Source of the DNA: Calditerrivibrio sp.
Lineage (GTDB): Bacteria; Chrysiogenota; Deferribacteres; Deferribacterales; Calditerrivibrionaceae
Direction: 5' to 3'
Length of the DNA: 64,000 bases
Assembly (NCBI GenBank): GCA_026415135.1
Contig: JAOAHS010000006.1
Coordinates: 29,779-93,778 of the forward strand
Position numbers and translations under genes: made by a program. The notes below the pieces were generated by a model. That model did no database searches. It saw only the letters and a program-made list of their open reading frames with translations, and had not been told where the DNA came from. This document shows, in pieces, positions 9,423 to 56,718 of the stretch (its first letter is position 1; each line of letters begins with the position of its first letter).

Positions 9423-10043
9423 ATGATACCAGGTCTATTTTATGCACTTTCTGCAATAAATGCTGGAAATAAAAAGTATGGAATAACAGCTAATAATATA
9501 TCCAATATAAATTCCATAGGTTTCAAAGCAAAAATTTCACATCTACAAGAGTTTTCAAAGGGTGGAGTGGAACTCTACTCAGTAACTACAGATGATGGTG
9601 TTGGTTATTTTATAAACTCTGGTAGGCCTTTGGATTTGGCTATCAATGGTAAAGGGTATTTTAGAGTAAGTGATGGGGATAAATTTACTTACACCCGTAC
9701 CGGTATTTTTAGTGCAGATAAAAATGGTGACTTGGTGGATGTTTCTGGAAGAAAACTGGGTGTCAATGTGGGTAAGGATTCCAGTAAGATAGAAATAGAT
9801 AACAAGGGTAATGTGTATGCAGACGGTGAGCTTAAGGGTAAGATTGATCTATATGATCCAAGTGGTATACCTATTCCTGAGTCAAGCTACGAGATTTTAT
9901 CAGGTTTCTTAGAAGCTTCCAATGTCGATTTGGCAAGGGAGATGGTGGACAGTATAACAAACCTCAGGTATATTCAAGTAAATGTGAAGAGCATCAAGAC
10001 GATAGATGAGATGGTGGGGAATATAGTAAACATTGTAGGTTAA
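9423..10043 (+). CDS. Flagellar basal-body rod protein (short FlgF/FlgG-like, 206 aa)
   Basis: N-terminal rod motif GITANNISNINSIGFKA and C-terminal LEASNVDLAREMVDSITNLRYIQ; good SD AAAGGGG; no other flagellar genes nearby. Confidence 0.7.
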   Translation: MIPGLFYALSAINAGNKKYGITANNISNINSIGFKAKISHLQEFSKGGVELYSVTTDDGVGYFINSGRPLDLAINGKGYFRVSDGDKFTYTRTGIFSADKNGDLVDVSGRKLGVNVGKDSSKIEIDNKGNVYADGELKGKIDLYDPSGIPIPESSYEILSGFLEASNVDLAREMVDSITNLRYIQVNVKSIKTIDEMVGNIVNIVG

Positions 10044-11004: not shown

Positions 11005-12550
11005 TTAGCCTTTTGATCTCTTTATTGCCATAAAGGGTCAGAAAAATAGTTTTGGATAGGGTAACAGCTGTGAAGATTGAGGATAAGATACCGATAGTTA
11101 ACGTAACAGCAAATCCTTTTACTGGACCTGTCCCAAATTGAAACAAAACCAAACCTGCAATAAGGGTAGTTATGTTGGCATCGATGATTGTGGACATGGC
11201 TTTTTCAAACCCAGCTTCAAGGGCATTCATTGGTGTTCTACCGATTCTTAGCTCCTCACGGACACGTTCAAAGATCAGAACATTTGCATCGATGGCCATA
11301 CCCATTGTAAGTATTAACCCTGCAATACCAGGTAATGTCAATGTGGCTTTAAACATCCCCATAGCACCAAGAATCAAGATTGCATTTGTCAAAAGAGCAA
11401 TGCTTGCTATGAGACCAGAAAACTTATAGTAGATTAACATAAATAAAATAACTGCACCAACTCCAATTATACCAGCTATAATACCTTTATTGATCGAATC
11501 TTTACCCAATGATGGCCCTATAGTTCTGTTTTCTAAAATCTTAACAGGTGCGGGCAAACTACCAGCCCTAAGAACAATGGCTAGATCTTTTGCCTCATCA
11601 AGGGTGAAATTACCTGAAATTTGGGCTTCACCACCAGCTATCTTTTCCCTGATAACAGGGGCGGAATAAACATTGTCATCAAGTACTATAGCCATCCTTT
11701 TGTTCACATTTTCCGCGGTAATTTCTTCGAAAAGCTTGCTGCCTGCCGGGTCAAATTTTAGAGATACATAGGGTTCGTTAAATTGGGAGGATATTCTTAC
11801 CTCTGCTTCTACAAGATAGTCACCTGTCAAGACAGCATCTTTTTTCAGAACGTAAGGTATAGTGGAGGTAACCTGTCCTGTGACTTTGTCTATTTTTTTG
11901 CTGTAAAGAACTATAGAATCTGCAGGTATATTACCAGACTTTATTGTCTCTTCATTGTTGGCAGCTTCATCCACAAGATAAAATTTGAGTTGTGCTGTCT
12001 TTCCTATGAGATTTACAGCTCTTTCTGGATCTGTTATGCCTGCAAGTTGCACTAAGATATGATCCGTTCCCTGTCTTTGTATAATTGGCTCGTTTACCCC
12101 AAACTGATCAACTCTGTTTCTTATTACCTGGACGGCCTGTTCTACGGCGTAATTTTTAATTCTCTTGGTTTCATCCGGATCAAGTGATAGTTCTATGATC
12201 TTTTCATCGGTTGTCAAACCGCTTTCTTTGAGGATCGGATAGTTTTTATTTAATAGTTCGATGATCTTCTTTCTTTCATTGGCATCAGGTATACCTATTG
12301 TTATTTTGTTATTTTCATTTTTTTGGACAAATGAAAAGTTTATCTTGGAATTTCTTAACTCCTTTCTTATCTGAGTTGTCAACGTGTCGATTTTAGCTTG
12401 GACTGCTTTATCTGTCTCTACCCCCAATACTAAGTGCATACCACCCTTAAGATCAAGACCTAATTTTATCCTTTTATCCAATGGAAACATAAAAAATAAA
12501 GCCACCGCAAAGACTATTGCGATGGTTATCCATCTTAACTTAAGTTGCAT
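10997..12550 (-). CDS. secD: Protein translocase subunit SecD
   Basis: 517 aa, LGLDLKGG, periplasmic domain, C-terminal TM bundle with DANVLIFERVREE. Confidence 0.9.
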   Translation of the reverse strand: MQLKLRWITIAIVFAVALFFMFPLDKRIKLGLDLKGGMHLVLGVETDKAVQAKIDTLTTQIRKELRNSKINFSFVQKNENNKITIGIPDANERKKIIELLNKNYPILKESGLTTDEKIIELSLDPDETKRIKNYAVEQAVQVIRNRVDQFGVNEPIIQRQGTDHILVQLAGITDPERAVNLIGKTAQLKFYLVDEAANNEETIKSGNIPADSIVLYSKKIDKVTGQVTSTIPYVLKKDAVLTGDYLVEAEVRISSQFNEPYVSLKFDPAGSKLFEEITAENVNKRMAIVLDDNVYSAPVIREKIAGGEAQISGNFTLDEAKDLAIVLRAGSLPAPVKILENRTIGPSLGKDSINKGIIAGIIGVGAVILFMLIYYKFSGLIASIALLTNAILILGAMGMFKATLTLPGIAGLILTMGMAIDANVLIFERVREELRIGRTPMNALEAGFEKAMSTIIDANITTLIAGLVLFQFGTGPVKGFAVTLTIGILSSIFTAVTLSKTIFLTLYGNKEIKRLSV

Positions 12551-12553
12551 CGG

Positions 12554-14003
<1,450 letters not shown>

Positions 14004-29446: not shown

Positions 29447-30550
29447 TTATTTTATTTTAAAAGAGTCAGGGAGATGGAATTCATTTTTTGTTCTGCTGAA
29501 ATACCCCATTTTGACCCTTTTATTCTTCTTTTTAATATATTTGAGCATATTTTTCAATCCAAATATTTCTGTATTTTCTATCTTGTTTTCAGCAAAAAAG
29601 ATATCCTGATTTGTTTTAAGTTCCCTTAATTTGATATAATCTATTTTAAAAGTTGATATAAATTCTAGAGTTTTCTCATATTCTTTTACAGTATCTGTAA
29701 AACCAGGCAATGTTAATAAGTTTACGGATATGTATAAATTCTGTTTTTCAGCGAATTCAAATAGTTTGGTGAATATTTCAAAAGATATCCCCTTTTTGGC
29801 GAGGTAATCTGGGTTAAAAGAATCGACATCAAAGCTTATGGAGTCTATATATTCACTTAAAGAGCTTTTGAATTTTTCCATAGAAAAGGTTTTTATGTTC
29901 AAATTTAATGTTATGGTATCATTTTTTTCCTGTTTTATCATTTCAATGGTTTTGCTGTCTAAATCATATTTCAATGTGATTACAAAAGATAATTGTAAGT
30001 CCGATATGGTTCTAATAAAGTGAAACGTTGCTTCAAGCTCTTTATGGTTTTTGACAATTATTTCGCAATTTGTTAGATAATCTAACATATACTGTTTGTT
30101 TAAGAATGAATATATATTCTCATGTTGAATAATACTAAAAATCTTCTTTTTGTTCTTTTCGTTTATGATATTTTTCTTTTCAATCAATATTGCAGGAACA
30201 ACAAACCTATCATCCATCCAACCAACAGGAGTCAAGTGTGATGAGATGAGGTTGTTATCATTAGTATTTTTTTTGTAGGCTGGCAGTAATGTCCTGAGGT
30301 ATCCTTTGGGTAATTCAACAGACACAGGAAAACCGCCGGAAAATTCAATGATTTTTGCTTGCATCTGATCGTAAGAGTAGGGGATGGCGTCTGGTATTGC
30401 TATTAATTTGCAGTTTTCTGGTAATGGTATCATCTCTAACTCATAGGGAACAATATTATAACTACCTGTTCTGAATACAGATTTAAGCACAGGGTGTTCG
30501 TAGACTACACCATTTTTATCAGAAAATACTAAATTTGGTATATTGTACAT
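29447..30550 (-). CDS. Hypothetical protein (367 aa), no recognisable family
   Basis: First gene of the 30550->26504 minus-strand operon; no signal peptide, only 2 Cys, no known motifs. Confidence 0.5.
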   Translation of the reverse strand: MYNIPNLVFSDKNGVVYEHPVLKSVFRTGSYNIVPYELEMIPLPENCKLIAIPDAIPYSYDQMQAKIIEFSGGFPVSVELPKGYLRTLLPAYKKNTNDNNLISSHLTPVGWMDDRFVVPAILIEKKNIINEKNKKKIFSIIQHENIYSFLNKQYMLDYLTNCEIIVKNHKELEATFHFIRTISDLQLSFVITLKYDLDSKTIEMIKQEKNDTITLNLNIKTFSMEKFKSSLSEYIDSISFDVDSFNPDYLAKKGISFEIFTKLFEFAEKQNLYISVNLLTLPGFTDTVKEYEKTLEFISTFKIDYIKLRELKTNQDIFFAENKIENTEIFGLKNMLKYIKKKNKRVKMGYFSRTKNEFHLPDSFKIK

Positions 30551-47572: not shown

Positions 47573-48526
47573 TTAGATTATTGCAAGTCTATTTCTACCT
47601 TCTTTTTTGGAGATATAAAGAGCATGATCGGCTGCATTTAAGTTGTGATCAATGCTTATGGGTTTTAATTTCGTGGCACCAATTGATATTGTATAACTGA
47701 TAAATCGATTATCGTTTATTTCGACAATAGATCTTTCGATATTTTTTCTAAAGTTTTCAAATATTTTTCTTGCATCATTTTCATTGACATTTATTAGGAT
47801 AATGGCAAACTCTTCACCACCTATTCTACCGACAATATCACTTTTCCTGAGTTCTGTTGTTAGTTTGCCAGCCAAGTGTTTGAGTATTATGTCTCCATTT
47901 ATGTGACCATAAGTGTCGTTTATAGCTTTAAAATGATCTATGTCAATTATACCTAAAAAACAGTCTGTTTCATACCTATTGATCTGATCAATAATTTTTT
48001 GGCCAATCTCATAGAAAAATCTTCTATTATATAGACCTGTGAGATAATCCTTTTCCGCAATATCCTTCATTTTTGCGTACATCTCTTGTAATTCTTTGTT
48101 TTTACTTTCAAGCTCTTTTGATTGTAAATAAAGATTAGCATGGGCTTCTGCAAGTTCGTTTTGAATCTTTTTGGCTTCAGTGATATCTATTCCAATTGTA
48201 TATTTTACCAATCTACCATCTGGCCAATACATCATACATTCATCAAGTCTATACCATTTATCTTTTAGTTCACTGAAGCATTCGTGACTAATTCTTTCGT
48301 TTATCTTTTTATTTTCTATTAGATATTTTATCTTACAATGTGGACATACATTCTGAAAACCAAAAATCTTTTCGTAACACTTGACATTGTTATTATAAGA
48401 AAACTCTTCCCAGAATAATTGGTTACCATATATAACTTGATACTCATTGACATCAATAACATAGACTACAAAGGGTATCATATCAAACAGTCTTTCAAAT
48501 ATACTGTTTTCAACTATAGTACTCAT
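47573..48526 (-). CDS. PAS (Cys-motif) + GGDEF diguanylate cyclase
   Basis: N-terminal PAS with KCYEKIFGFQNVCPHCK; coiled linker; GGDEF domain with RIGGEEFAI active site. Confidence 0.8.
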   Translation of the reverse strand: MSTIVENSIFERLFDMIPFVVYVIDVNEYQVIYGNQLFWEEFSYNNNVKCYEKIFGFQNVCPHCKIKYLIENKKINERISHECFSELKDKWYRLDECMMYWPDGRLVKYTIGIDITEAKKIQNELAEAHANLYLQSKELESKNKELQEMYAKMKDIAEKDYLTGLYNRRFFYEIGQKIIDQINRYETDCFLGIIDIDHFKAINDTYGHINGDIILKHLAGKLTTELRKSDIVGRIGGEEFAIILINVNENDARKIFENFRKNIERSIVEINDNRFISYTISIGATKLKPISIDHNLNAADHALYISKKEGRNRLAII

Positions 48527-49689
48527 TTAAAGCTCCTTTTTATTGGCAAAAATAAATCTACAGTAGTTCCAATATCCAATTGGGAGCTGATCTCTATAAA
48601 GCCATCATGTTGGCTAATTATGCCAAAAGATTCTGAAAGTCCAAGTCCAAAAGCATTTCTATAATCTTTAGTTGTAAAAAAAGGATCTTGAACTTTATCA
48701 ACATATTCATCTTTTATACCAAAGCCATGATCTGTAATAGATATTTTTATAAAATCAGAGTCTTTTACCTTTACATGTTTACATGTGATCTCAATATCAC
48801 CACCGTTTGGCATCGATTCCATAGAATTTTTTACTATATTATCTAAACATGAACTAAATAGTTCCAAATCCAATGATAATTTTATATTTAAGACAGAATC
48901 GATGTTAAGATGAAAGTTGTATATTTTGTCTGATGTGGCCTGTTTTGTTTTTACATAATTAGTAAGAAAGCGGGAGATGTCAATGTCATGTAGGTTCAAT
49001 ATAGCTTTTTGGCTAAACTTAATGATTCCCTGAATAATCTTTGTGGCTTTTGATACGGAATCTTTTATTATTTCCATTTCTTTTTTAAGTTCTGGATAGA
49101 TCTGATTTTTACTTAACTTATCTGAAATTATTAATAGTGGAGTATTAATATTGTTTAAGTGATGAGCCAAACCGCTTGAAAGGTTAACCAAAGATCGTAG
49201 CTTTTCCAAAGCTATATCTTTCTTTTTTGATTCTTCAAGTTGAAATAAAAGATTTTTTAATTCTTTATTATTTTCTTCTATCTTTTTACTTTTCAATAAA
49301 AGTTCTGCATGTGATTCAGAGAGCTTATTTTGTGTAAATTTTAACTCCGTGATATCCACGCATATACTATATTTTACAAGTTTACCATTGGGCCAGAAAA
49401 TAGATTTTTCTTCTATTCTATACCATTTATCTTCAAGTTCATTAAAATTATCAAAAATAACCGTATTCCCTTTAGGTTTTCTATTCTCAATCAATTCGGT
49501 GATTTTACAAAATATACATGGAGAATCATTGCCATAAATGATATTGTAACATTTTTTTCCTTCATAGTTTTCAAATCTTTTTTTGAAATAGTCGTTCATG
49601 TAGATGATATCCAGCGTATCAACATCAGTGACATAAACCCCAAAGGGTAGCATATCAAAAAGTGTTTCAAATATCCTCATCTCATTCAT
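48523..49689 (-). CDS. PAS (Cys-motif) + histidine kinase (HisKA-like + HATPase_c)
   Basis: PAS with KCYNIIYGNDSPCIFCK (paralogous to the PAS at 47573-48526); H box GLAHHLNNINTPL; HATPase G boxes (DHGFGI, GLGLS). Confidence 0.8.
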   Translation of the reverse strand: MNEMRIFETLFDMLPFGVYVTDVDTLDIIYMNDYFKKRFENYEGKKCYNIIYGNDSPCIFCKITELIENRKPKGNTVIFDNFNELEDKWYRIEEKSIFWPNGKLVKYSICVDITELKFTQNKLSESHAELLLKSKKIEENNKELKNLLFQLEESKKKDIALEKLRSLVNLSSGLAHHLNNINTPLLIISDKLSKNQIYPELKKEMEIIKDSVSKATKIIQGIIKFSQKAILNLHDIDISRFLTNYVKTKQATSDKIYNFHLNIDSVLNIKLSLDLELFSSCLDNIVKNSMESMPNGGDIEITCKHVKVKDSDFIKISITDHGFGIKDEYVDKVQDPFFTTKDYRNAFGLGLSESFGIISQHDGFIEISSQLDIGTTVDLFLPIKRSFK

Positions 49690-50071
49690 ATACTTTATTT
49701 GAAGTATTTGATAGAATTTTACTTATTGATTTAGCAATTTTTTCCTCATCAAAAGGTTTTAAAACATATCCAGATGCTCCGGCTTCAATAGCTTTTACGA
49801 TCATCTGTTCTTGACCATGAGATGTTATCATCAAAATAGGCACCGTAGGTGATTTTTCCCTAATCTTTATAGTTGCTTCTATGCCGTCTATATCAGGCAT
49901 TGTAATATCCATGCTTACAAAATCTATCTCCTCAGGATTAAATTTTTCTATTGCTTCTTTTCCTGTCCTTGCAGTTGCTACTACTGTGTGACCCAATGAT
50001 TCAAATATTTGAGTCAGTTTTTTGATGATAATCAGGGAATCATCTGCAATCAATACCCTTAAATTACTCAT
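49682..50071 (-). CDS. CheY-like single-domain response regulator
   Basis: LIADDS acidic pocket, phospho-acceptor D in VSMDITMPDIDG, T/K (YVLKPF). Confidence 0.85.
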   Translation of the reverse strand: MSNLRVLIADDSLIIIKKLTQIFESLGHTVVATARTGKEAIEKFNPEEIDFVSMDITMPDIDGIEATIKIREKSPTVPILMITSHGQEQMIVKAIEAGASGYVLKPFDEEKIAKSISKILSNTSNKVYE

Positions 50072-50561
50072 TTATTCCTCCGTTTTGTTTATCTTGGATT
50101 ATTAGATATATGTTTATGTTACCATCTGTTGTGGAGATCATAGAATGATAATACTTTGAATCTTTCTTGTTTAGAATACTTTTGGCTTCATTGACTATCA
50201 ATGGAGGCGAAAAAGATAGAAGTGAATCGTTAATTTCTAAAGATTTTGTAGAGTTCCCCAAAACTATATTCATGACTTCACATGCAGATTCTGCATAAAG
50301 CTCATCTTTTTCATCATCTTTCACATCTAACTCTTTGGTAAATTGATAAAATATCTTATCAAGAATTGCTTTCTCGTAACTAAAAACAACTATTGCTGTT
50401 ATATGACCTTTGATAGACATTATAGATGTTAGATAGTTTAAATTAATTTTTGGAACATCTTTTAGATATATTTTTTTGCTTATAGGATTTAATGAAAGAT
50501 CTTTTTCAATGAAATCAATACATTTTTCCGTTATAATATCAATGATTTTCTTATACTCCAT
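50064..50561 (-). CDS. CheX/CheC-family-like phosphatase
   Basis: SACEVMNIVLGN matches the S/D-x-x-E-x-x-N-x-x-x-G CheC/X active-site pattern; 165 aa; sits between kinase and CheY. Confidence 0.5.
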   Translation of the reverse strand: MEYKKIIDIITEKCIDFIEKDLSLNPISKKIYLKDVPKINLNYLTSIMSIKGHITAIVVFSYEKAILDKIFYQFTKELDVKDDEKDELYAESACEVMNIVLGNSTKSLEINDSLLSFSPPLIVNEAKSILNKKDSKYYHSMISTTDGNINIYLIIQDKQNGGINE

Positions 50562-50564
50562 ATT

Positions 50565-53048
50565 TTACTCCTCATAAGGTATTTTAACCAAAACCTCTGT
50601 ACCTAAATCTTTTTCAGATATAACTTCTATTTTTCCACCTATCTTTTCAATTTCAAACTTAACTGCTGATAAACCAACTCCCCTACCCTTATAAATATCA
50701 GCTTCTTTAATTGAAGTATAACCTTCTAAAAATATTTTTTCAAGTTCTTCTTGGTCTATTCCTTTGCCATCATCTGTTATCTTAATAATCAAATAATTCT
50801 CTGATTTTGAAATTCTTACAGTCACATTACCTACCTCACTCTTGCCTTTCGCTTCTCTAACTTGAGGTGTTTCTATCCCATGTATGACTGCATTGGTGAA
50901 AATGTGATATAAAGAGCTAAGGCATTTGAAGTAATCAGGTATATATATTTGTATATTATCCTTACATTCTATATCAAAACGCACTAATTTCCCTTCCCTT
51001 TCAGATACCCTTTCCACTAATTTTCTGAAATTATCAAAATAGGACAGTAAATTTATTTTAAGAAAGTTTTTAATCTCTTTGTGTAAGGGGTTATGCTCTA
51101 TTTTTAACCTATTAGCTAAAATAGTAAGTCTCTCTTCAGATATTCGAACAAAATTCTCATCAACAAAATCTTTTTCTAAATATTTTCGTAGAATATCCAT
51201 GTCTTTTTTTAGTGAAGCAAAAAGTGAATCCACAAACTTTTCTCTATTGCTTAATGCATATTCTAAGTTTTCTTCAAAAATATGGATTAGCTCTGGTAGA
51301 TTTATAAAACCTTTTTGCAAAAAATTGCCTTTAAAAGTGTGCAACTCTTTTTTAATGATGTTTAAAGGATACAGATGGATGTTTAAAATGAAATCTTTAA
51401 ATTCTTTTATCAATTCTTTTGTTACATATTCATCTTTTACATATTCTACAACAAATTTTAACATTTTTCTTTCATTTTCAAGCTGTTTTTCTAACATCTT
51501 TTCATCTGTTATATCCTTCATTATTAAGATAATGTTTTTGTCCTTTGAAAGTTTATAGGTTAACTGATAGGTTTTATCTAAGATATCTACCTGTGGAGGC
51601 AAAAGTTCCAACATTGTTTCTTTTAAGAAGGTATTTTCTTGTTGAAATACTGATTTTAAGAGATTTCTAATGTTTTGTTGTTTTGTTTTATCTTCAGGAA
51701 ACAGAAGTTCTACTATATCAACACCGGCTATATCTTTCCCAAATATCTCTTTACATACGGATGAGTATTCTTTATCTATTTTATAATCACTACCGAATTT
51801 CAAAAACCCCTCTCCTGAACTATCAAGAAGTGTAGATATTTTATCTTTACTTATTGCTAATTCTTTTGTTCTGTCAGCTACTTTGATCTCAAGGTCCTCC
51901 ACATGCTCTTTAATTTTCGCTGACATTAAATTAAAAATATTTGTCAACTCACCAATTTCATCATTTTGATTGTATTCTATTTTTGTATCGTAATTACCCT
52001 CTTTTATTCTATTAGCTGAAACAGCAATGGTTTTAATGGGGTTTATAAGCATCCTCTGAACAATATAACCAAAAGCCACAATCAATATAACCATTAATAA
52101 AAAGACAGAAATGATTGGTAATAATAACTGTTGTATATTCAATATCTTATCTATGTTTATTGCTGTTAGAATTACCCATTTCAACTCAGGGATATGACTT
52201 ATTGCCACCATATATTCGTTACCTAAAAGATTGACCTTAAATATATCCACAAGGTTGTTTGATTGTAATAGGTTTGAAATTCTGTTTTTGAGGATTTCTT
52301 TGCCTTTTTCGTTAGATATGTCAAATATTGTTGTTTGCTTTTTACTTTTATCAACTATTCTCAGATTCATGAGGGACTTATCCTTCGAAGCAAAAATGGT
52401 TCCATCCTCCTGTAATATAAATTGAATAGTACCCTCTTCAGTTTTTTCTATAAATTCATTTACAAAATCAGTTATTTCTATTCCTGTACCGATAACCCCT
52501 CTTAAAATACCATCATCTATCATGACAACATTTATCCACAAATTTGTTTTTCCGACTTCTTTATCGAAATCGACATTTAGGGTGTATAGAGTAGGCTGCT
52601 TAATTGTTATAAAATACCAAATATCATCTTTGTTTTCAGGGTTTAGTGTTTTAATAATTTTAGCCACTCCACCAGATTTTTCATCGGAGTAGTAATAATT
52701 CAAACTATTATTTATTACAAAAAAAGCCGATTTCGATGTAAAATGTTTTCTAAAGTTTTCAAATTCTTGAAGAGCAAGATCTTTGTATAGTATATTTTCT
52801 TCGTGTTTTCCCCAAAGAGTTAGTATTTTAGAGTTACTCATCAATCTTGATATGGTAAGTTCCTTGTTTAATATACCACTGATCCGTTCTTTTTGATATA
52901 AAACTGAAGTTTTAGCATATTTTTCTGCTAAATTTTCTACAACTATTGTATAGATCTTTTTCCAGAACATGTACGCAGATGTAAGAATGATAATGATACC
53001 TATTATTAGCGCCATCTTCATTTTAAAGCTTATAGAGTTAAATGTCAT
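50565..53048 (-). CDS. Transmembrane sensor kinase with HPt-type phosphorylation site (CheA-like, no HisKA/DHp): TM-Cache-like-TM-HAMP-PAS-like-HPt-HATPase_c
   Basis: Two TMs flank a ~285-aa periplasmic domain; HAMP after TM2; HPt-like KELHTFKGNF; C-terminal HATPase (HIFTNAVIHG, ITDDGKGI, GRGVGLS); no H-box of HisKA type found by eye. Confidence 0.65.
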   Translation of the reverse strand: MTFNSISFKMKMALIIGIIIILTSAYMFWKKIYTIVVENLAEKYAKTSVLYQKERISGILNKELTISRLMSNSKILTLWGKHEENILYKDLALQEFENFRKHFTSKSAFFVINNSLNYYYSDEKSGGVAKIIKTLNPENKDDIWYFITIKQPTLYTLNVDFDKEVGKTNLWINVVMIDDGILRGVIGTGIEITDFVNEFIEKTEEGTIQFILQEDGTIFASKDKSLMNLRIVDKSKKQTTIFDISNEKGKEILKNRISNLLQSNNLVDIFKVNLLGNEYMVAISHIPELKWVILTAINIDKILNIQQLLLPIISVFLLMVILIVAFGYIVQRMLINPIKTIAVSANRIKEGNYDTKIEYNQNDEIGELTNIFNLMSAKIKEHVEDLEIKVADRTKELAISKDKISTLLDSSGEGFLKFGSDYKIDKEYSSVCKEIFGKDIAGVDIVELLFPEDKTKQQNIRNLLKSVFQQENTFLKETMLELLPPQVDILDKTYQLTYKLSKDKNIILIMKDITDEKMLEKQLENERKMLKFVVEYVKDEYVTKELIKEFKDFILNIHLYPLNIIKKELHTFKGNFLQKGFINLPELIHIFEENLEYALSNREKFVDSLFASLKKDMDILRKYLEKDFVDENFVRISEERLTILANRLKIEHNPLHKEIKNFLKINLLSYFDNFRKLVERVSEREGKLVRFDIECKDNIQIYIPDYFKCLSSLYHIFTNAVIHGIETPQVREAKGKSEVGNVTVRISKSENYLIIKITDDGKGIDQEELEKIFLEGYTSIKEADIYKGRGVGLSAVKFEIEKIGGKIEVISEKDLGTEVLVKIPYEE

Positions 53049-53065
53049 ATTTATCCTATAATCAA

Positions 53066-53671
53066 CTATTTTATTATGATCTCTACCCTTCTGTTTTTGG
53101 GTTCGGAAGTTTCATCTGGTAGGGGTATTAATGGATCATCTTCTCCATGGGATAAGATTTCTATAGGTGTTGTTTCCAAAACACCAGAGCTTAAAATAAT
53201 ATGTTTTACAGACTCAGCTCTTTTTAGGCCTAAATTATAGTTTACCTCTTTAGAACCTAAACTATCGGTGTGACCTATTATCAGAATTTCTGGATCTTTT
53301 CTTGATTTAATCTCTTTCAAAAGATCTTGAACATTGGCAAGGCTTTCTTCAGTAAGATTGTCACTGCCTGCAAGAAAATATAAAAGGAAGGATTTTGGTT
53401 TGAGAGGCTCCATATTTAGCAGATTTGAATATCTTTTTGAAAACTCTTCATCAGACATTAAGGTAGGTTCAGATATTTTATCTTTATCTATTGTTACAAA
53501 ATATTTATTTTTATCTATGACAACTTCACCTTTTTCCGTTTTAACATATACCTTTCCTACCTTTCCATCTTCATCTGCCATAAGGCATACAAGATCTTTT
53601 TTTTCGATCTTAAAAGAGCCGATAGCCAAAACAACAGCAGTTGTCAAAACAAAAAGTGTAAAGGGTGTCAT
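53066..53671 (-). CDS. OmpA C-terminal-domain (peptidoglycan-associating) protein with N-terminal TM anchor
   Basis: IIGHTDSLGSKEVNYNLGLKRAESVKHIIL...NRRVEIII OmpA/MotB-like motif. Confidence 0.7.
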   Translation of the reverse strand: MTPFTLFVLTTAVVLAIGSFKIEKKDLVCLMADEDGKVGKVYVKTEKGEVVIDKNKYFVTIDKDKISEPTLMSDEEFSKRYSNLLNMEPLKPKSFLLYFLAGSDNLTEESLANVQDLLKEIKSRKDPEILIIGHTDSLGSKEVNYNLGLKRAESVKHIILSSGVLETTPIEILSHGEDDPLIPLPDETSEPKNRRVEIIIK

Positions 53672-54099
53672 TGGCTTGCCTCCACAATAAACTTAGTTCC
53701 TTTTACTCCAACTACAGCTGAAGATGTTTTTATTCCTACATTATTGGCTGCTATCTTTGGTATTTTCCCAGAGTTAAAAAGTATTTTTCCAGTTTTAAGC
53801 TCCCCTTTTAATTCATAGGTAGATTTCTTAGGATCATATTGATAAGCTTGGACAATATAATGAGTGTTTTCGTCAAGAGTTATCATTGTGTTATCTTTAA
53901 AAACTATACCACAACCTGATTTGTTTTTTGTAATTATTTGATCTTTGTTTAGAATATTAAAACCTAACTTGACATCGAGTTCTTTGTTATCCCTTAAAAC
54001 AATGACATTGCCATTAATGTTCCTAACTTTTCCAATTGTTTCTGAAAAAGATGGGATAGTAAAGACTAAGAAGAGAAAAAGAGTTATAAATATTCTCAT
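53668..54099 (-). CDS. Secreted FecR-domain-like protein (143 aa)
   Basis: Signal peptide; beta-rich G/V/K pattern reminiscent of FecR/anti-sigma sensor domain; SD AAAGGGGTG; begins 19 nt after tRNA-Pro 3' end. Confidence 0.45.
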   Translation of the reverse strand: MRIFITLFLFLVFTIPSFSETIGKVRNINGNVIVLRDNKELDVKLGFNILNKDQIITKNKSGCGIVFKDNTMITLDENTHYIVQAYQYDPKKSTYELKGELKTGKILFNSGKIPKIAANNVGIKTSSAVVGVKGTKFIVEASQ

Positions 54100-54118
54100 A
54101 AGGCACCCCTTTTAAAAA

Positions 54119-54192
54119 TCGGGGCGACTGGATTTGAACCAGCGACCACACCCACCCCAAAGGTGTACGCTACCAGGCTGCGCCACGCCCCG
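54119..54192 (-). tRNA. tRNA-Pro (anticodon GGG)
   Basis: Revcomp CGGGGCG-TG-GCGC-AGCCTGGTA-GCGT-A-CACCT-TTGGGGT-GGGTG-TGGTC-GCTGG-TTCAAAT-CCAGT-CGCCCCG-A; anticodon loop UUGGGGU gives GGG with G37. Confidence 0.8.
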
Positions 54193-54200
54193 ATAACAAA

Positions 54201-54229: not shown

Positions 54230-54254
54230 GACTAAATGAGTTTTTTATAAAAGC

Positions 54255-54282
54255 CAGGGTTCTTATTTATAAAGAACCCTGA
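54255..54282 (-). terminator. Perfect 12-13-bp palindromic hairpin after the lipoprotein gene stop (putative terminator)
   Basis: CAGGGTTCTTTAT-tt-ATAAAGAACCCTG immediately 3' of the stop at 54289; followed on minus strand by GCUUUUAUAAAAAA. Confidence 0.4.
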
Positions 54283-54288
54283 CAGTAT

Positions 54289-55398
54289 TTATCTTAGTTT
54301 TTCTATCACTATCCTGAAGTTATCAAACTTTTTAAGTTCATATTTATTTAAGTTTTTTATGGCATTTGCAAGGTAAATAGTTTTTTCCGGATATTCTACA
54401 ACAACTTTGTCAACACCCCTGTCATTAACGTTTAAAACCCAGCTTATATACTGGAGATCATTTTTTAACTCTAAAAGTTTATTTAAATCGTTATTACCTG
54501 CTAAAACTATTTCTACAGTTCTTTTGTTTTGTCCTTTGATCTTTTCAACCACAGTGGAGATAAGCTCGTTGGAAACATTTGATGCTAAATTTTCCAGCAT
54601 ATTGTGAGTAGCGTCTTCAGGGGTTGGTCCCTGCCCTCTTCCAGAAACATATCCACTTGCTACAACTATTTTTTGGCCATTTTTATCACCGATAAGTCTG
54701 TAGGTCAATCTACCTGTAACCACATTGAAAGGTAAGGAAACACCATAACCTATGTTTTTACCCTGTTGTGCCGATAATGTTGTTTCTACTTTTCCTATCA
54801 GGATAGCGCCCGACATAAACTGATAAGCCACATTTCTAAATGCGCTATAGTTATTGTTTTTTAATGCACTATCAATCTCCATAAGGGAATATTTACTACC
54901 TAAAGAAGCTATATCCACTACATCAAGCCCTTGAGCAGATAGCTCATTTATCACCTTTTCTGACAATGCAGTGGTTTCATCGACTTTGTTATTGGGAAAA
55001 ATAACAGGTATATAGACTGCTACAGATGTATTTTTAGCAAAGATACTTACAGCTTTTGCTGCTTCTGCTGGTGAAATATCTGCTGATATCTTGACCCAGT
55101 AAAGGTCTTTATCTTTACCTTCATCAATGATTTTATATTTGTCTACAACTCCTTTAACCTCTGACTTGATTGCTTCGTCCACCAACTGGGCATTTTGAAC
55201 TATTGTCTCCACTTTTACCTGAACACCTGCAGCAGCTTCCAAAGCAGCCCATTTTGCTCTTGCAATAGCTTGAAATTTTGCTGCAGCTATGTCACCATTG
55301 ACAATATTTGCTTCGCCAGTAGCTGTAACAGTTTTGGCAAAAGCAGAAAAGCCTAAAGATAGCACCATTAAAAACACTAGCAAATATCTTTTCATCAT
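54289..55398 (-). CDS. Secreted/lipoprotein-like protein (putative CsgG-partner; LPP20/FlgP-like Ala-rich N-domain)
   Basis: Start at MMKRY (SD GAGAGGTG); signal peptide; N-domain KTVTATGEA...AAAKFQAIARAKWAALEAAAGVQV; no confident family. Confidence 0.5.
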   Translation of the reverse strand: MMKRYLLVFLMVLSLGFSAFAKTVTATGEANIVNGDIAAAKFQAIARAKWAALEAAAGVQVKVETIVQNAQLVDEAIKSEVKGVVDKYKIIDEGKDKDLYWVKISADISPAEAAKAVSIFAKNTSVAVYIPVIFPNNKVDETTALSEKVINELSAQGLDVVDIASLGSKYSLMEIDSALKNNNYSAFRNVAYQFMSGAILIGKVETTLSAQQGKNIGYGVSLPFNVVTGRLTYRLIGDKNGQKIVVASGYVSGRGQGPTPEDATHNMLENLASNVSNELISTVVEKIKGQNKRTVEIVLAGNNDLNKLLELKNDLQYISWVLNVNDRGVDKVVVEYPEKTIYLANAIKNLNKYELKKFDNFRIVIEKLR

Positions 55399-55410
55399 AC
55401 ACCTCTCAAA

Positions 55411-55440
55411 CAAAAAAGGGGGATACCCCCCTTATATTTT
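55411..55440 (-). terminator. Intrinsic terminator after the CsgG-like gene
   Basis: Minus-strand GGGGGG-uau-CCCCCC hairpin followed by UUUUUUGUUUG. Confidence 0.6.
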
Positions 55441-56642
55441 TAAAACAGTTTTTTCATGAACCCTTGCCCTTCAAGAGGAGCTCTTTTAACTAATGTACCG
55501 ACTTTTAATCTTTTAATGTTTTCAGGTTTACCTTCTATCTTTACCCATGCAGAATTTTCATCCACTTGGTTTGAGACGATTATATCAACATCTATTTTTG
55601 TTTTTTGACAATTCATCTTTTTTGTCATGAAATCCTGTATTTCCATAAATTCATATGCTTCAATTTTGTTACCAGGTTGAATTCCATCGGCTTTACCCAA
55701 ACTTACAAGAGCAACCTGCTTGCCACCACGAAGTTGATTTATATATGCTTTCGCTCCAAAAAGATCAGAAAACTCTGGTTTAATATCATCTACAGACTCA
55801 CCAAATGCTTTTTTAGCAGCGTTAACAACCAATTCTGGATTAAACGCAGGTTGTTCACCTGCAAGCTCCCTACCTTTTACCTTTTTACTCAATACAAGCT
55901 GTCCAGTAGAGGCATCGATCAACTGAACAGTCATCTCGGTATTAACATTCCAACCAACTGTTGCTGCATCAACAGCTGCTTTTGTGGCAGCTAAAGCTAA
56001 ATTGACCCATACATTACCGGTGTTTGTATCATTTTTGGTTCTCTGAACATAATGAGCTTTTATTAGGTCAACAGTACCTGTTATTATGTAATCAACACCT
56101 GAAATCTTACCAAATTTAGTAACTGTGTTAGGATCTGCCATGTTCATCTGAAAACCTTGTTCCTGAAGAACTTTCCCCACCTGTTGTCTAGTGAAGACCT
56201 GTACACCACCTATTTTCATTATGGCATCTTCAACTGCTGACTGGGCATATTGCCCTAAATTAGGAGCTATTTCACGGTAAAATGTATTGATATCTGCTGA
56301 GTATTTGTGATCCTTTTGGGTAACTCCTGCATAGCCCACACCAGCTGCACCAGGCCCAACAACAACTCCTGCAACACCAGCAGATTTTGTAGTAGTCTGA
56401 GATTGGCCTTGAATTTGAGTATTTACAGCCTTCATATCACCATAGCCTGTGTTATTTGCAAAATCAACTACTGCAACTTTGTACTTTTTCCCTTGATATT
56501 GTGCTTCACATATCTTAGGAACCTGAACCTGCTCCTGATCAGCTGGAGTAATTTGCATTGCACCAGGATCCAATTTTGGTGGTTGTGCACAAGCAAAGAG
56601 AAATACTACAGCTAAGACACTTAGATATTTAAAAAACCTCAT
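55440..56642 (-). CDS. CsgG/HfaB-family outer-membrane lipoprotein (secretion-pore family)
   Basis: Start at MRFFKY (SD GGAGGGA 5 nt upstream); lipobox LFAC; KVAVVDFANNTGYGDM, FTRQQVGKVLQEQGF, VDYIITGTVDLIKA parallel E. coli CsgG motifs (KIFVSVYNIQDETG, LERQGLQNLLNE, IMVEGSIIGYE). Confidence 0.65.
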   Translation of the reverse strand: MRFFKYLSVLAVVFLFACAQPPKLDPGAMQITPADQEQVQVPKICEAQYQGKKYKVAVVDFANNTGYGDMKAVNTQIQGQSQTTTKSAGVAGVVVGPGAAGVGYAGVTQKDHKYSADINTFYREIAPNLGQYAQSAVEDAIMKIGGVQVFTRQQVGKVLQEQGFQMNMADPNTVTKFGKISGVDYIITGTVDLIKAHYVQRTKNDTNTGNVWVNLALAATKAAVDAATVGWNVNTEMTVQLIDASTGQLVLSKKVKGRELAGEQPAFNPELVVNAAKKAFGESVDDIKPEFSDLFGAKAYINQLRGGKQVALVSLGKADGIQPGNKIEAYEFMEIQDFMTKKMNCQKTKIDVDIIVSNQVDENSAWVKIEGKPENIKRLKVGTLVKRAPLEGQGFMKKLF

Positions 56643-56718
56643 AAATCCCTCCATAGTTTTTTGTATTTTAATTATAACAGGTAAATATGAAAAATCAAAT
56701 AAATTTTAAAAAAATTTT

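Follow-up and report, generated by a model that had tools for sequence, protein, structure and literature searches.

In a 64,000-nucleotide stretch of the Calditerrivibrio sp. (Deferribacterota) metagenome-assembled genome GCA_026415135.1 (contig JAOAHS010000006.1, forward-strand positions 29,779 to 93,778; hereafter the window), two neighboring minus-strand genes encode a lipoprotein publicly annotated as 'CsgG/HfaB family' (gene 1) and a partner (gene 2). Judging from their sequences, both proteins carry Sec signal peptides, with a lipobox in gene 1 and none in gene 2. Gene 1 is predicted to combine an alpha/beta domain of the CsgG/TolB-N/PelC/FlgT-M fold with a FlgT-C-like beta-barrel, and gene 2 is predicted to combine a FlgP/FlgT-N-like SHS2 domain, the same alpha/beta fold, and a ferredoxin-like domain. 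We favor, at roughly even chances, the reading that the two products are subunits of a periplasmic scaffold with an outer-membrane anchor, in all likelihood a ring or lattice, that draws on the FlgT/FlgP domain kit and is not a membrane-spanning CsgG-type channel. In the solved structures on which we relied, the component folds build rings at the outer membrane or beneath it, and a ring or lattice is the most economical reading.

Gene 1 occupies an open reading frame (ORF) at 55440..56654 (minus strand), of which 55440..56642 is the likely coding sequence (CDS). The start at 56642 is likely because a ribosome-binding site (GGAGGG) sits between two in-frame ATGs, and the product is a 400-aa lipoprotein that begins MRFFKYL and has the lipobox LFAC18. 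Gene 2 occupies the ORF 54289..55413 (minus strand), with a likely CDS at 54289..55395 encoding 368 aa that begin MKRY. Public proteins with 100% identity exist for gene 1 (P0001) and gene 2 (P0055), and both genes are real since they have homologues as strong as E = 1e-260 and 1e-229, respectively. The original prediction, made from the DNA letters, had described a 400-aa LFAC lipoprotein with a signal-peptide partner, and both ORFs were found on the minus strand as described. It had interpreted them as a CsgG-family pore and a partner lipoprotein in a region without curlin genes.

The 400-aa protein passed the gathering threshold of Pfam CsgG (PF03783; 27.7 bits, cut-off 20.8), so its earlier assignment to this family was borne out at the level of the hidden Markov model (HMM), with the match covering only profile positions 31-156 of 210. 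Three strings offered as diagnostic CsgG blocks (KVAVVDFANNTGYGDM, FTRQQVGKVLQEQGF, and DYIITGTVDLIKA) were all located in gene 1, but they correspond to strands and helices of an alpha/beta core common to LpoB, TolB-N, PelC, and FlgT-M and are not diagnostic of CsgG. Among 49 diverse relatives of gene 1, Pfam matches were to CsgG in 49, LpoB in 46, and, at E ≤ 0.01, FlgT_C in 29 and FlgT_M in 9. Gene 1 itself scored below the cut-offs of FlgT_M (13.5 vs 31.2 bits) and FlgT_C (14.2 vs 27 bits), and no FlgT_N match was found in it. The cysteine of the lipobox (L-F-A-C18) was invariant across the 49 family sequences.

Structure prediction pointed to FlgT. The AlphaFold model of gene 1 had a mean pLDDT (predicted local distance difference test) score of 68.6, with a good C-terminal third and a fair middle domain. 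It consists of a conserved N-terminal tether containing Cys45, the CsgG/TolB-N/PelC/FlgT-M-fold alpha/beta domain with two inserts, and a C-terminal beta-barrel containing Cys345. The barrel is of the FlgT-C / F1-ATPase N-terminal type, with matches to the barrels at the N-termini of F1/V1 ATPase subunits. The top Foldseek hits of gene 1 were both FlgT (8z5n, E = 1.3e-14; 3w1e, E = 1.5e-14) and spanned ~351-355 columns, or nearly the whole FlgT chain, with CsgG (E = 6e-5) and PelC (E = 8e-5) further down. Cys45 (56508-56510, minus strand) and Cys345 (55608-55610, minus strand) were invariant or nearly so among the 49 members, and a disulfide between them may pin the tether to the C-domain. The extreme C-terminus of gene 1 (55443-55478, minus strand) has a tail, GQ(G/S)xxKK(L/M)(F/W/Y), that is conserved in Deferribacterota and absent in many distant relatives. 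The FlgT ring of Vibrio receives the C-terminal tail of FlgP in a groove, and by analogy the gene 1 tail could be a docking peptide.

The alpha/beta fold is also that of LpoB and TolB-N, which raises the alternative that gene 1 is a regulator that modulates wall synthesis and reaches a peptidoglycan synthase or Tol-Pal from the outer membrane. In addition to the fold, the LpoB matches among family members (best E = 6.6e-8) and the presence of peptidoglycan-binding neighbors (OmpA-like and SLH proteins) agree with such a role. However, gene 1 fell short of the LpoB cut-offs (20.1 vs 22.3 bits for Pfam LpoB, matched at residues 139-201 of the 404-aa ORF translation; 22.7 vs 110.6 bits for TIGR02722), lacks a long disordered linker of the LpoB kind, and has no adjacent penicillin-binding protein or tol genes. 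We regard an LpoB-like regulatory role as the least supported reading and highly improbable.

The channel interpretation could be compared with a known pore. CsgG is a nonamer with a composite 36-stranded barrel, to which each subunit contributes two transmembrane beta-hairpins (TM1 and TM2), and its constriction is lined by stacked Phe, Asn, and Tyr rings (PMC4594475). We took six strands and helices common to gene 1 and E. coli CsgG as anchors and compared the spacers between them. The TM2 hairpin spacer was 14 aa in gene 1 vs 34 aa in CsgG, and since 14 residues are too few for a membrane-spanning hairpin, TM2 is absent from gene 1. The other spacers were longer in gene 1: 41 vs 25 aa for the TM1 hairpin, 62 vs 15 aa for the constriction loop, and 116 vs 37 aa for the C-terminal tail. 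The insert at the TM1 position was variable and largely polar across the 49-sequence alignment (~14 aa in P0198), and the model of gene 1 rendered it partly helical at low confidence. No conserved Phe/Asn/Tyr constriction was found across the same alignment, and both inserts shrink or vanish in some family members.

At the constriction-loop position, gene 1 has a Gly/Ala/Val-rich insert (residues 66-117; 56293..56448, minus strand) whose core, SAGVAGVVVGPGAAGVGYAGV, contains a central Pro-Gly. This insert is conserved in Deferribacterota, missing in several distant family members, and disordered in the AlphaFold2 model (pLDDT < 50). We rejected a SlyB-type glycine-zipper membrane hairpin for this segment, given the lack of Pfam support and the disorder in the model. 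A direct sequence tie between gene 1 and CsgG was likewise rejected, as the hhalign comparison with E. coli CsgG covered 16 columns at a probability of 10%. The gene 1 family profile had no match at E ≤ 10 among all PDB sequences, CsgG included, and tblastn with E. coli CsgG on the window found no match near gene 1.

Because the pore elements are absent, gene 1 has the CsgG core fold without the features that make a channel. The pore or secretion-channel function originally proposed is not supported: the CsgG match is partial, TM2 and the constriction residues are lacking, and profiles miss CsgG. In its remaining form, gene 1 would be a non-curli CsgG-type outer-membrane secretion channel for an unspecified cargo, with gene 2 as its periplasmic adaptor. 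Two points leave some room for a channel, namely the unexplained inserts of gene 1 and the small barrel-like protein that accompanies the module in some lineages. Against it, besides the missing hairpin and constriction and the variable polar insert at the TM1 position, FlgT and PelC match gene 1 as well as or better than CsgG does. There was also no sign of a curli system in the DNA screened: tblastn with E. coli CsgA-G at E < 0.2 found no csgA/B/C/E/F relatives in the window, as the original prediction had stated, and no csgE/F/A/B-like genes in three related loci screened (L001, L003, and L004). No conserved candidate cargo gene was found beside the pair among the loci analysed. Altogether, we consider a channel improbable.

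Gene 2 provided a second line of evidence. Its leader is of the signal-peptidase-I type and ends GFSAFA↓KTV without a cysteine, so gene 2 is a secreted protein and not the partner lipoprotein that had been proposed. Gene 2 exceeded the cut-off of Pfam FlgT_N (PF16548; 39.5 bits, cut-off 28.8), and 22 of 25 relatives also matched this model. By comparison, Pfam LPP20 (PF02169) reached only 16.1 vs 25.9 bits, at residues 254-299. The proposal of an LPP20/FlgP-like N-domain was thus partly borne out: the N-domain looks FlgP/LPP20-like, but the family that it matches is FlgT_N, with the weak LPP20 match lying outside it. The gene 2 family profile aligned without gaps to 9hmf_C, C. jejuni FlgP (E = 6e-6). 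The entry 9HMF models the periplasmic scaffold of C. jejuni, and the 171-residue lipoprotein that it contains in three copies agrees with the described FlgP trimer. In FlgP, the residues that lie between the SHS2 helix and the second strand form a ring-building hairpin (PMC12222027). The alignment of gene 2 to FlgP spans this presumed ring-forming hairpin, with boundaries set by eye from the published description.

The model of gene 2 (pLDDT 78.6) has three domains: a FlgT-N/FlgP/LPP20-like SHS2 domain, an alpha/beta domain, and a ferredoxin-like C-domain. The middle domain resembles TolB-N, PelC, and FlgT-M, has a long beta-hairpin, and shares its alpha/beta fold with gene 1; its fold matches were HpaA (9.8), TolB (9.6), FlgT (9.4), PelC (9.3), and CsgG (8.5). 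Close paralogy of gene 1 and gene 2 was rejected, since hhalign of the two family alignments gave 2% probability over the strand-helix after the hairpin, leaving a shared fold only. Gene 2 also matched NCBIfam LipL46 (NF033164) over residues 27-340 (E = 1.6e-12), although at 46.8 bits vs an equivalog cut-off of 400. Because the match spans these residues, gene 2 and the Leptospira protein LipL46 share a domain order, one difference being that LipL46 is lipidated. LipL46 is an outer-membrane lipoprotein described as an adhesin or antigen, with no established mechanism.

Several known systems use these domains in rings. The Vibrio LPHT ring includes FlgT and FlgP, with 26 subunits of each in the H ring and MotX/MotY in the T ring, and lipid anchoring of the L ring to the outer membrane has been proposed. 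In Campylobacter, the concentric rings of the basal disk are made of FlgP (PMC12222027). PelC crystallised as a dodecamer according to PDB entry titles, and its PDB chains are single-domain (132-158 residues). Gene 1 would be lipidated at Cys18 on the inner face of the outer membrane and would oligomerise with gene 2, in the manner of CsgG (9-mer), FlgT (26-mer), FlgP (concentric rings), or PelC (dodecamer). The Vibrio LPHT ring follows the same logic as the proposed scaffold, and the analogy supports this reading.

The pair nonetheless differs from each known system. FlgT (3W1E, 8Z5N) is the best structural match of gene 1, and its N-terminal domain is found in gene 2. However, FlgT carries its three domains in one polypeptide, whereas here they are split, with M and C in gene 1 and N and M in gene 2. 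In addition, gene 1 is predicted to be lipidated, has two large inserts, and is below the Pfam FlgT_M and FlgT_C thresholds; the last domain of gene 2 is ferredoxin-like where FlgT has FlgT-C; and both genes lie outside flagellar clusters. Gene 2 differs from the FlgP/LPP20 family (Campylobacter and Vibrio basal disk; H. pylori Lpp20) in its threefold length, the lack of a lipoprotein signal, two extra domains, and a Pfam LPP20 score below threshold. Gene 1 shares with CsgG/HfaB its lipoprotein nature, alpha/beta core, Pfam match above threshold, and public name, but it lacks the TM2 hairpin and Phe/Asn/Tyr constriction, has a 62-aa insert in place of a 15-aa loop and an extra 116-aa C-terminal region, and has no csgE/F/A/B neighbors.

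The fold of lipoprotein gene 1 is also PelC-like, and the pair might instead form a PelC-like periplasmic funnel, a lipoprotein ring beneath the outer membrane that, controlled by cyclic nucleotides, leads an exopolysaccharide or another polymer towards a porin encoded separately in the outer membrane. As with a channel, the unexplained inserts of gene 1 and the small barrel-like protein in the module of some lineages would find a place in such a system. PelC differs in being a single domain encoded in a pel operon, while gene 1 has inserts, a FlgT-C-like domain, and a conserved FlgP-like partner. No Pel-type, glycosyltransferase, TPR-porin, or polysaccharide export genes were among the annotated neighbors, which include ung, coaBC, and a FecR operon. 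Hence, we find a funnel very doubtful.

We next consider whether the pair is conserved as a unit. A scan of genome collections with the gene 1 alignment reached 14 loci, and a metagenome scan with the gene 2 alignment yielded 80 loci; adjacency was counted on 83 loci, comprising those 80 and a few reference loci. A relative of gene 1 was located at most three genes from gene 2 in 66 of the 83 loci. The two genes were adjacent in all complete Deferribacterota loci recovered, and a protein search with a diverse family alignment returned the same Deferribacterota set. The gene 2 family also adjoins gene 1 in other phyla, which makes the originally suggested partner a conserved one. In an Arcobacter genome, the gene after a gene 1 homologue encodes a Pfam LPP20 protein.

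In 21 of the 83 loci, the pair has two companions nearby, one being an SLH-domain lipoprotein and the other a second LPP20-like protein. The latter, of ~330 aa, combines a signal peptide with an LPP20-like core, and its HMM gives weak matches to gene 2 relatives. Gene order varies by lineage. Gene 1 directly precedes gene 2 in Calditerrivibrio and others, the ~330-aa protein stands between them in Denitrovibrio, and both the SLH-domain lipoprotein and the ~330-aa protein, in that order, stand between them in Deferribacter. The order is gene 2, gene 1, SLH protein, and ~330-aa protein in Geomesophilobacter, a Nitrospiraceae metagenome-assembled genome, and a 1.2-Mb metagenome contig.

These companions suggest how the favored periplasmic scaffold might be employed. 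The assembly would be tied to peptidoglycan by the SLH-domain lipoprotein in other lineages and possibly by the adjacent OmpA-like protein here. It would serve envelope architecture, in connecting or spacing the outer membrane and wall, might be watched by recurring FecR- or CHASE2-type sensors, and would be either free-standing or placed around a polar flagellar motor. A tentative extension, which we hold to be possible and well short of probable, is that the pair and its SLH-lipoprotein and LPP20-like companions are a free-standing, non-flagellar ring or lattice that lies beneath the outer membrane and links it to the wall. It would constitute a previously undescribed module in Deferribacterota, Nitrospirota, Desulfuromonadales-type lineages, and some Campylobacterota and Aquificota, and an ancestral-type stock from which FlgT and FlgP were recruited. 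In the searchable literature, we found no description of the pair, no report joining 'CsgG-like' with FlgT or Lpp20 with CsgG, and no relevant report on SLH, transglutaminase, and CsgG. An E-ring review and a FapH paper were set aside as sources on the gene family, as neither concerns it.

Putative transcription signals bear on the relative amounts of the two products. Upstream of gene 1 is a sigma-70-type promoter-like site (56671..56698, minus strand; TTGATT, 16 nt, TG-n-TATAAT), a 10/12 match with an extended -10 that rests on consensus only. Similar TGnTATAAT elements were identified by eye, again from the consensus, 5' of gene 1 orthologues in four loci (L001, L006, L007, and L011). An intrinsic terminator had been predicted between the genes, and a terminator- or attenuator-like element is present there: a GC-rich hairpin, GGGGGGTATCCCCC, followed by T6 (55415..55433, minus strand). 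Hairpins of differing sequence occupy this position in three Calditerrivibrio versions and in Seleniivibrio-type loci (loci with a hairpin: L001, L006, and L015-L017), whereas L007 and L011, in which the two genes abut, have none. Another terminator-like hairpin, with a 12 bp stem and T-run, is located 3' of gene 2 (54253..54283, minus strand), where L006, L007, L011, and L015-L017 also have a GC-rich hairpin and T-run. The region contained 10 terminator-like sites vs 2.7 ± 1.7 in shuffles. From the pattern of intergenic hairpins, we suggest that a partial terminator governs how much of each product is made. By lowering read-through, it would leave the product of gene 1 more abundant than that of gene 2.

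The resemblance to FlgT and FlgP raises the alternative that the pair is a flagellar motor accessory, which in Deferribacterota and the other lineages that have it would encircle the LP ring of the polar flagellum with an outer ring resembling the H-ring or basal disk, work as FlgT and FlgP do, and have the OmpA-like neighbor acting like MotY. Polar flagella are common in Deferribacterota, Arcobacter, Aquificaceae, Geobacter relatives, and Nitrospirota. MotY has an OmpA-like C-domain, which is consistent with the weak match of the OmpA-like neighbor to MotY. Beyond the structural match of gene 1 to FlgT and the FlgT_N domain and FlgP alignment of gene 2, flagellar-type genes exist in this genome, because the window encodes a FlgE/F/G-like rod protein. 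We compared 35 E. coli flagellar and chemotaxis proteins by tblastn with 99 loci (1.31 Mb) and the window. Near the pair, only one symbiont locus (L020) was positive, with FliN and CheA 5-8 kb away, and a sigma-factor match was found in one locus. Thus, apart from L020, no flagellar structural gene was found near the pair, and the recurrent neighbors are instead housekeeping, SLH, transglutaminase-like, and cyclic nucleotide monophosphate (cNMP) signalling genes. Gene 1 promoters appeared sigma-70-like in five loci by eye, with no search made for sigma-28 or sigma-54 sites. Furthermore, most of gene 2 is homologous to the NCBIfam model of Leptospira LipL46, which the literature treats as an outer-membrane lipoprotein and not as a motor part. 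Gene position lends a motor role no support, yet is not decisive against it because scattered accessory genes are known for other motors. On balance, we think a motor accessory unlikely.

Other observations weigh against a periplasmic ring or scaffold. Gene 1 does pass the CsgG Pfam threshold, and its model is of moderate confidence overall with both inserts poorly predicted. Membrane insertion by a non-canonical route, through the Gly-rich hairpin or an Ala-rich segment at residues 211-228, is possible. The SLH lipoprotein and the LPP20-like gene are both absent from the window, and the suggested link to peptidoglycan-binding partners comes solely from gene adjacency. Finally, a ~250-aa outer-membrane beta-barrel-like protein adjoins gene 2 in 13 loci (L004 7218-7976, L023 7611-8369, L040 8477-9235, and 10 others) and would fit a transport complex. 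It has a signal peptide, an alternating hydrophobic pattern, a C-terminal Phe/Trp, and no Pfam match, and it sometimes occurs as two tandem copies. None was found in Deferribacterota loci or in the window.

These genes were already annotated by family name; what is new is their reading as FlgT/FlgP-type ring proteins that are split, lipid-anchored, and located outside flagellar loci. The evidence indicates that the 'CsgG' label reflects a shared core fold only, and the main value of this analysis is to correct the curli-channel label and to offer a lead on where flagellar outer rings originated. Since public labels of 'CsgG/HfaB' or 'curli secretion channel' are attached to hundreds of proteins, such proteins can be misread as amyloid exporters. 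If the pair does form a periplasmic ring, it would be a candidate non-flagellar relative of H-ring and basal-disk proteins, with bearing on the origin of motor outer rings, or alternatively a new motor accessory in little-studied phyla. The SLH lipoprotein, second LPP20-like protein, small barrel-like protein, transglutaminase-like protein, and FecR/CHASE2/cNMP signalling genes together provide a testable gene set for envelope architecture in organisms whose envelopes are poorly characterized.

Beyond these companions, certain genes recurred near the pair. The housekeeping neighbors were gmk-rpoZ-coaBC-ung in Deferribacterota and a yidC-jag-mnmE block in 26 loci. A transglutaminase-like protein (~560 aa, with a transglutaminase core) recurred a few genes from the four-gene form of the module in 13 metagenome loci, with instances noted at L003 1-624, L004 13564-15228, L021 6047-7816, and L079 9908-11585, and in one Nitrospiraceae locus this protein is followed by a GNA1162-like/TPR/NosD protein and a second CsgG-like lipoprotein. 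BrkB and a cNMP-binding protein were near the pair in 12 metagenome loci, and CHASE2 adenylate/guanylate cyclases in 5 loci plus 6 Deferribacterota loci. Second-messenger sensors are found beside the pair in unrelated lineages (window 47573-54099, minus strand; L013 13534-15618; L021 13103-16252; L019 8104-9852), including a CHASE2 cyclase in Denitrovibrio-type loci, FecR with a CHASE2 cyclase on a distant contig, and a CHASE4-PAS-GGDEF protein in Arcobacter. The recurring sensors may reflect regulation or sensing of the module.

The surroundings of the pair in the window were as first described, with both the tRNA-Pro and the envelope-signalling operon identified. The tRNA-Pro(ggg) gene (54118..54193, minus strand) separates the pair from the FecR operon, a position kept in other Calditerrivibrio loci (L001 and L006). 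With this tRNA gene and a strong terminator in between, the FecR operon is probably transcribed separately from the pair. It begins with a FecR-domain protein (143 aa) and an OmpA-like peptidoglycan-binding protein (201 aa), whose genes overlap by 4 nt (53066..54099, minus strand). The former resembles LipL45, and the latter provides the weak MotY match. Both genes follow the pair in every Calditerrivibrio locus, even in those without the sensor gene, and a functional link to the pair is possible. A known case of a wall-binding periplasmic FecR protein beside a sensor kinase is the Burkholderia LysM-FecR protein with a CHASE2 kinase (PMC5192318).

Further along is the signalling operon (47573..53048, minus strand), which encodes a Cache/HAMP sensor with a CheA-like kinase-type ATPase domain (827 aa), CheX, a CheY-like receiver, a PAS histidine kinase, and a PAS-GGDEF cyclase. 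This operon is absent downstream of the pair in C. nitroreducens, and we treat it as context, associated with the pair by position alone. In the C. nitroreducens locus (L001), the called 190-aa FecR gene (12445-13017) overlaps the same-strand tRNA-Pro(ggg) gene (12486-12561). This public call looks too long, as the true start is probably downstream and would give ~143 aa, as in the window. The rod- or hook-like gene of the window is an orphan encoding a 206-aa FlgE/F/G-like protein (9423-10043, plus strand; Pfam LlgE_F_G_D1 and Flg_bbr_C), 45 kb from the pair. It stands among DUF3108, secDF, yajC, tgt, and queA with no flagellar gene nearby, and its product is unusually short for a rod protein.

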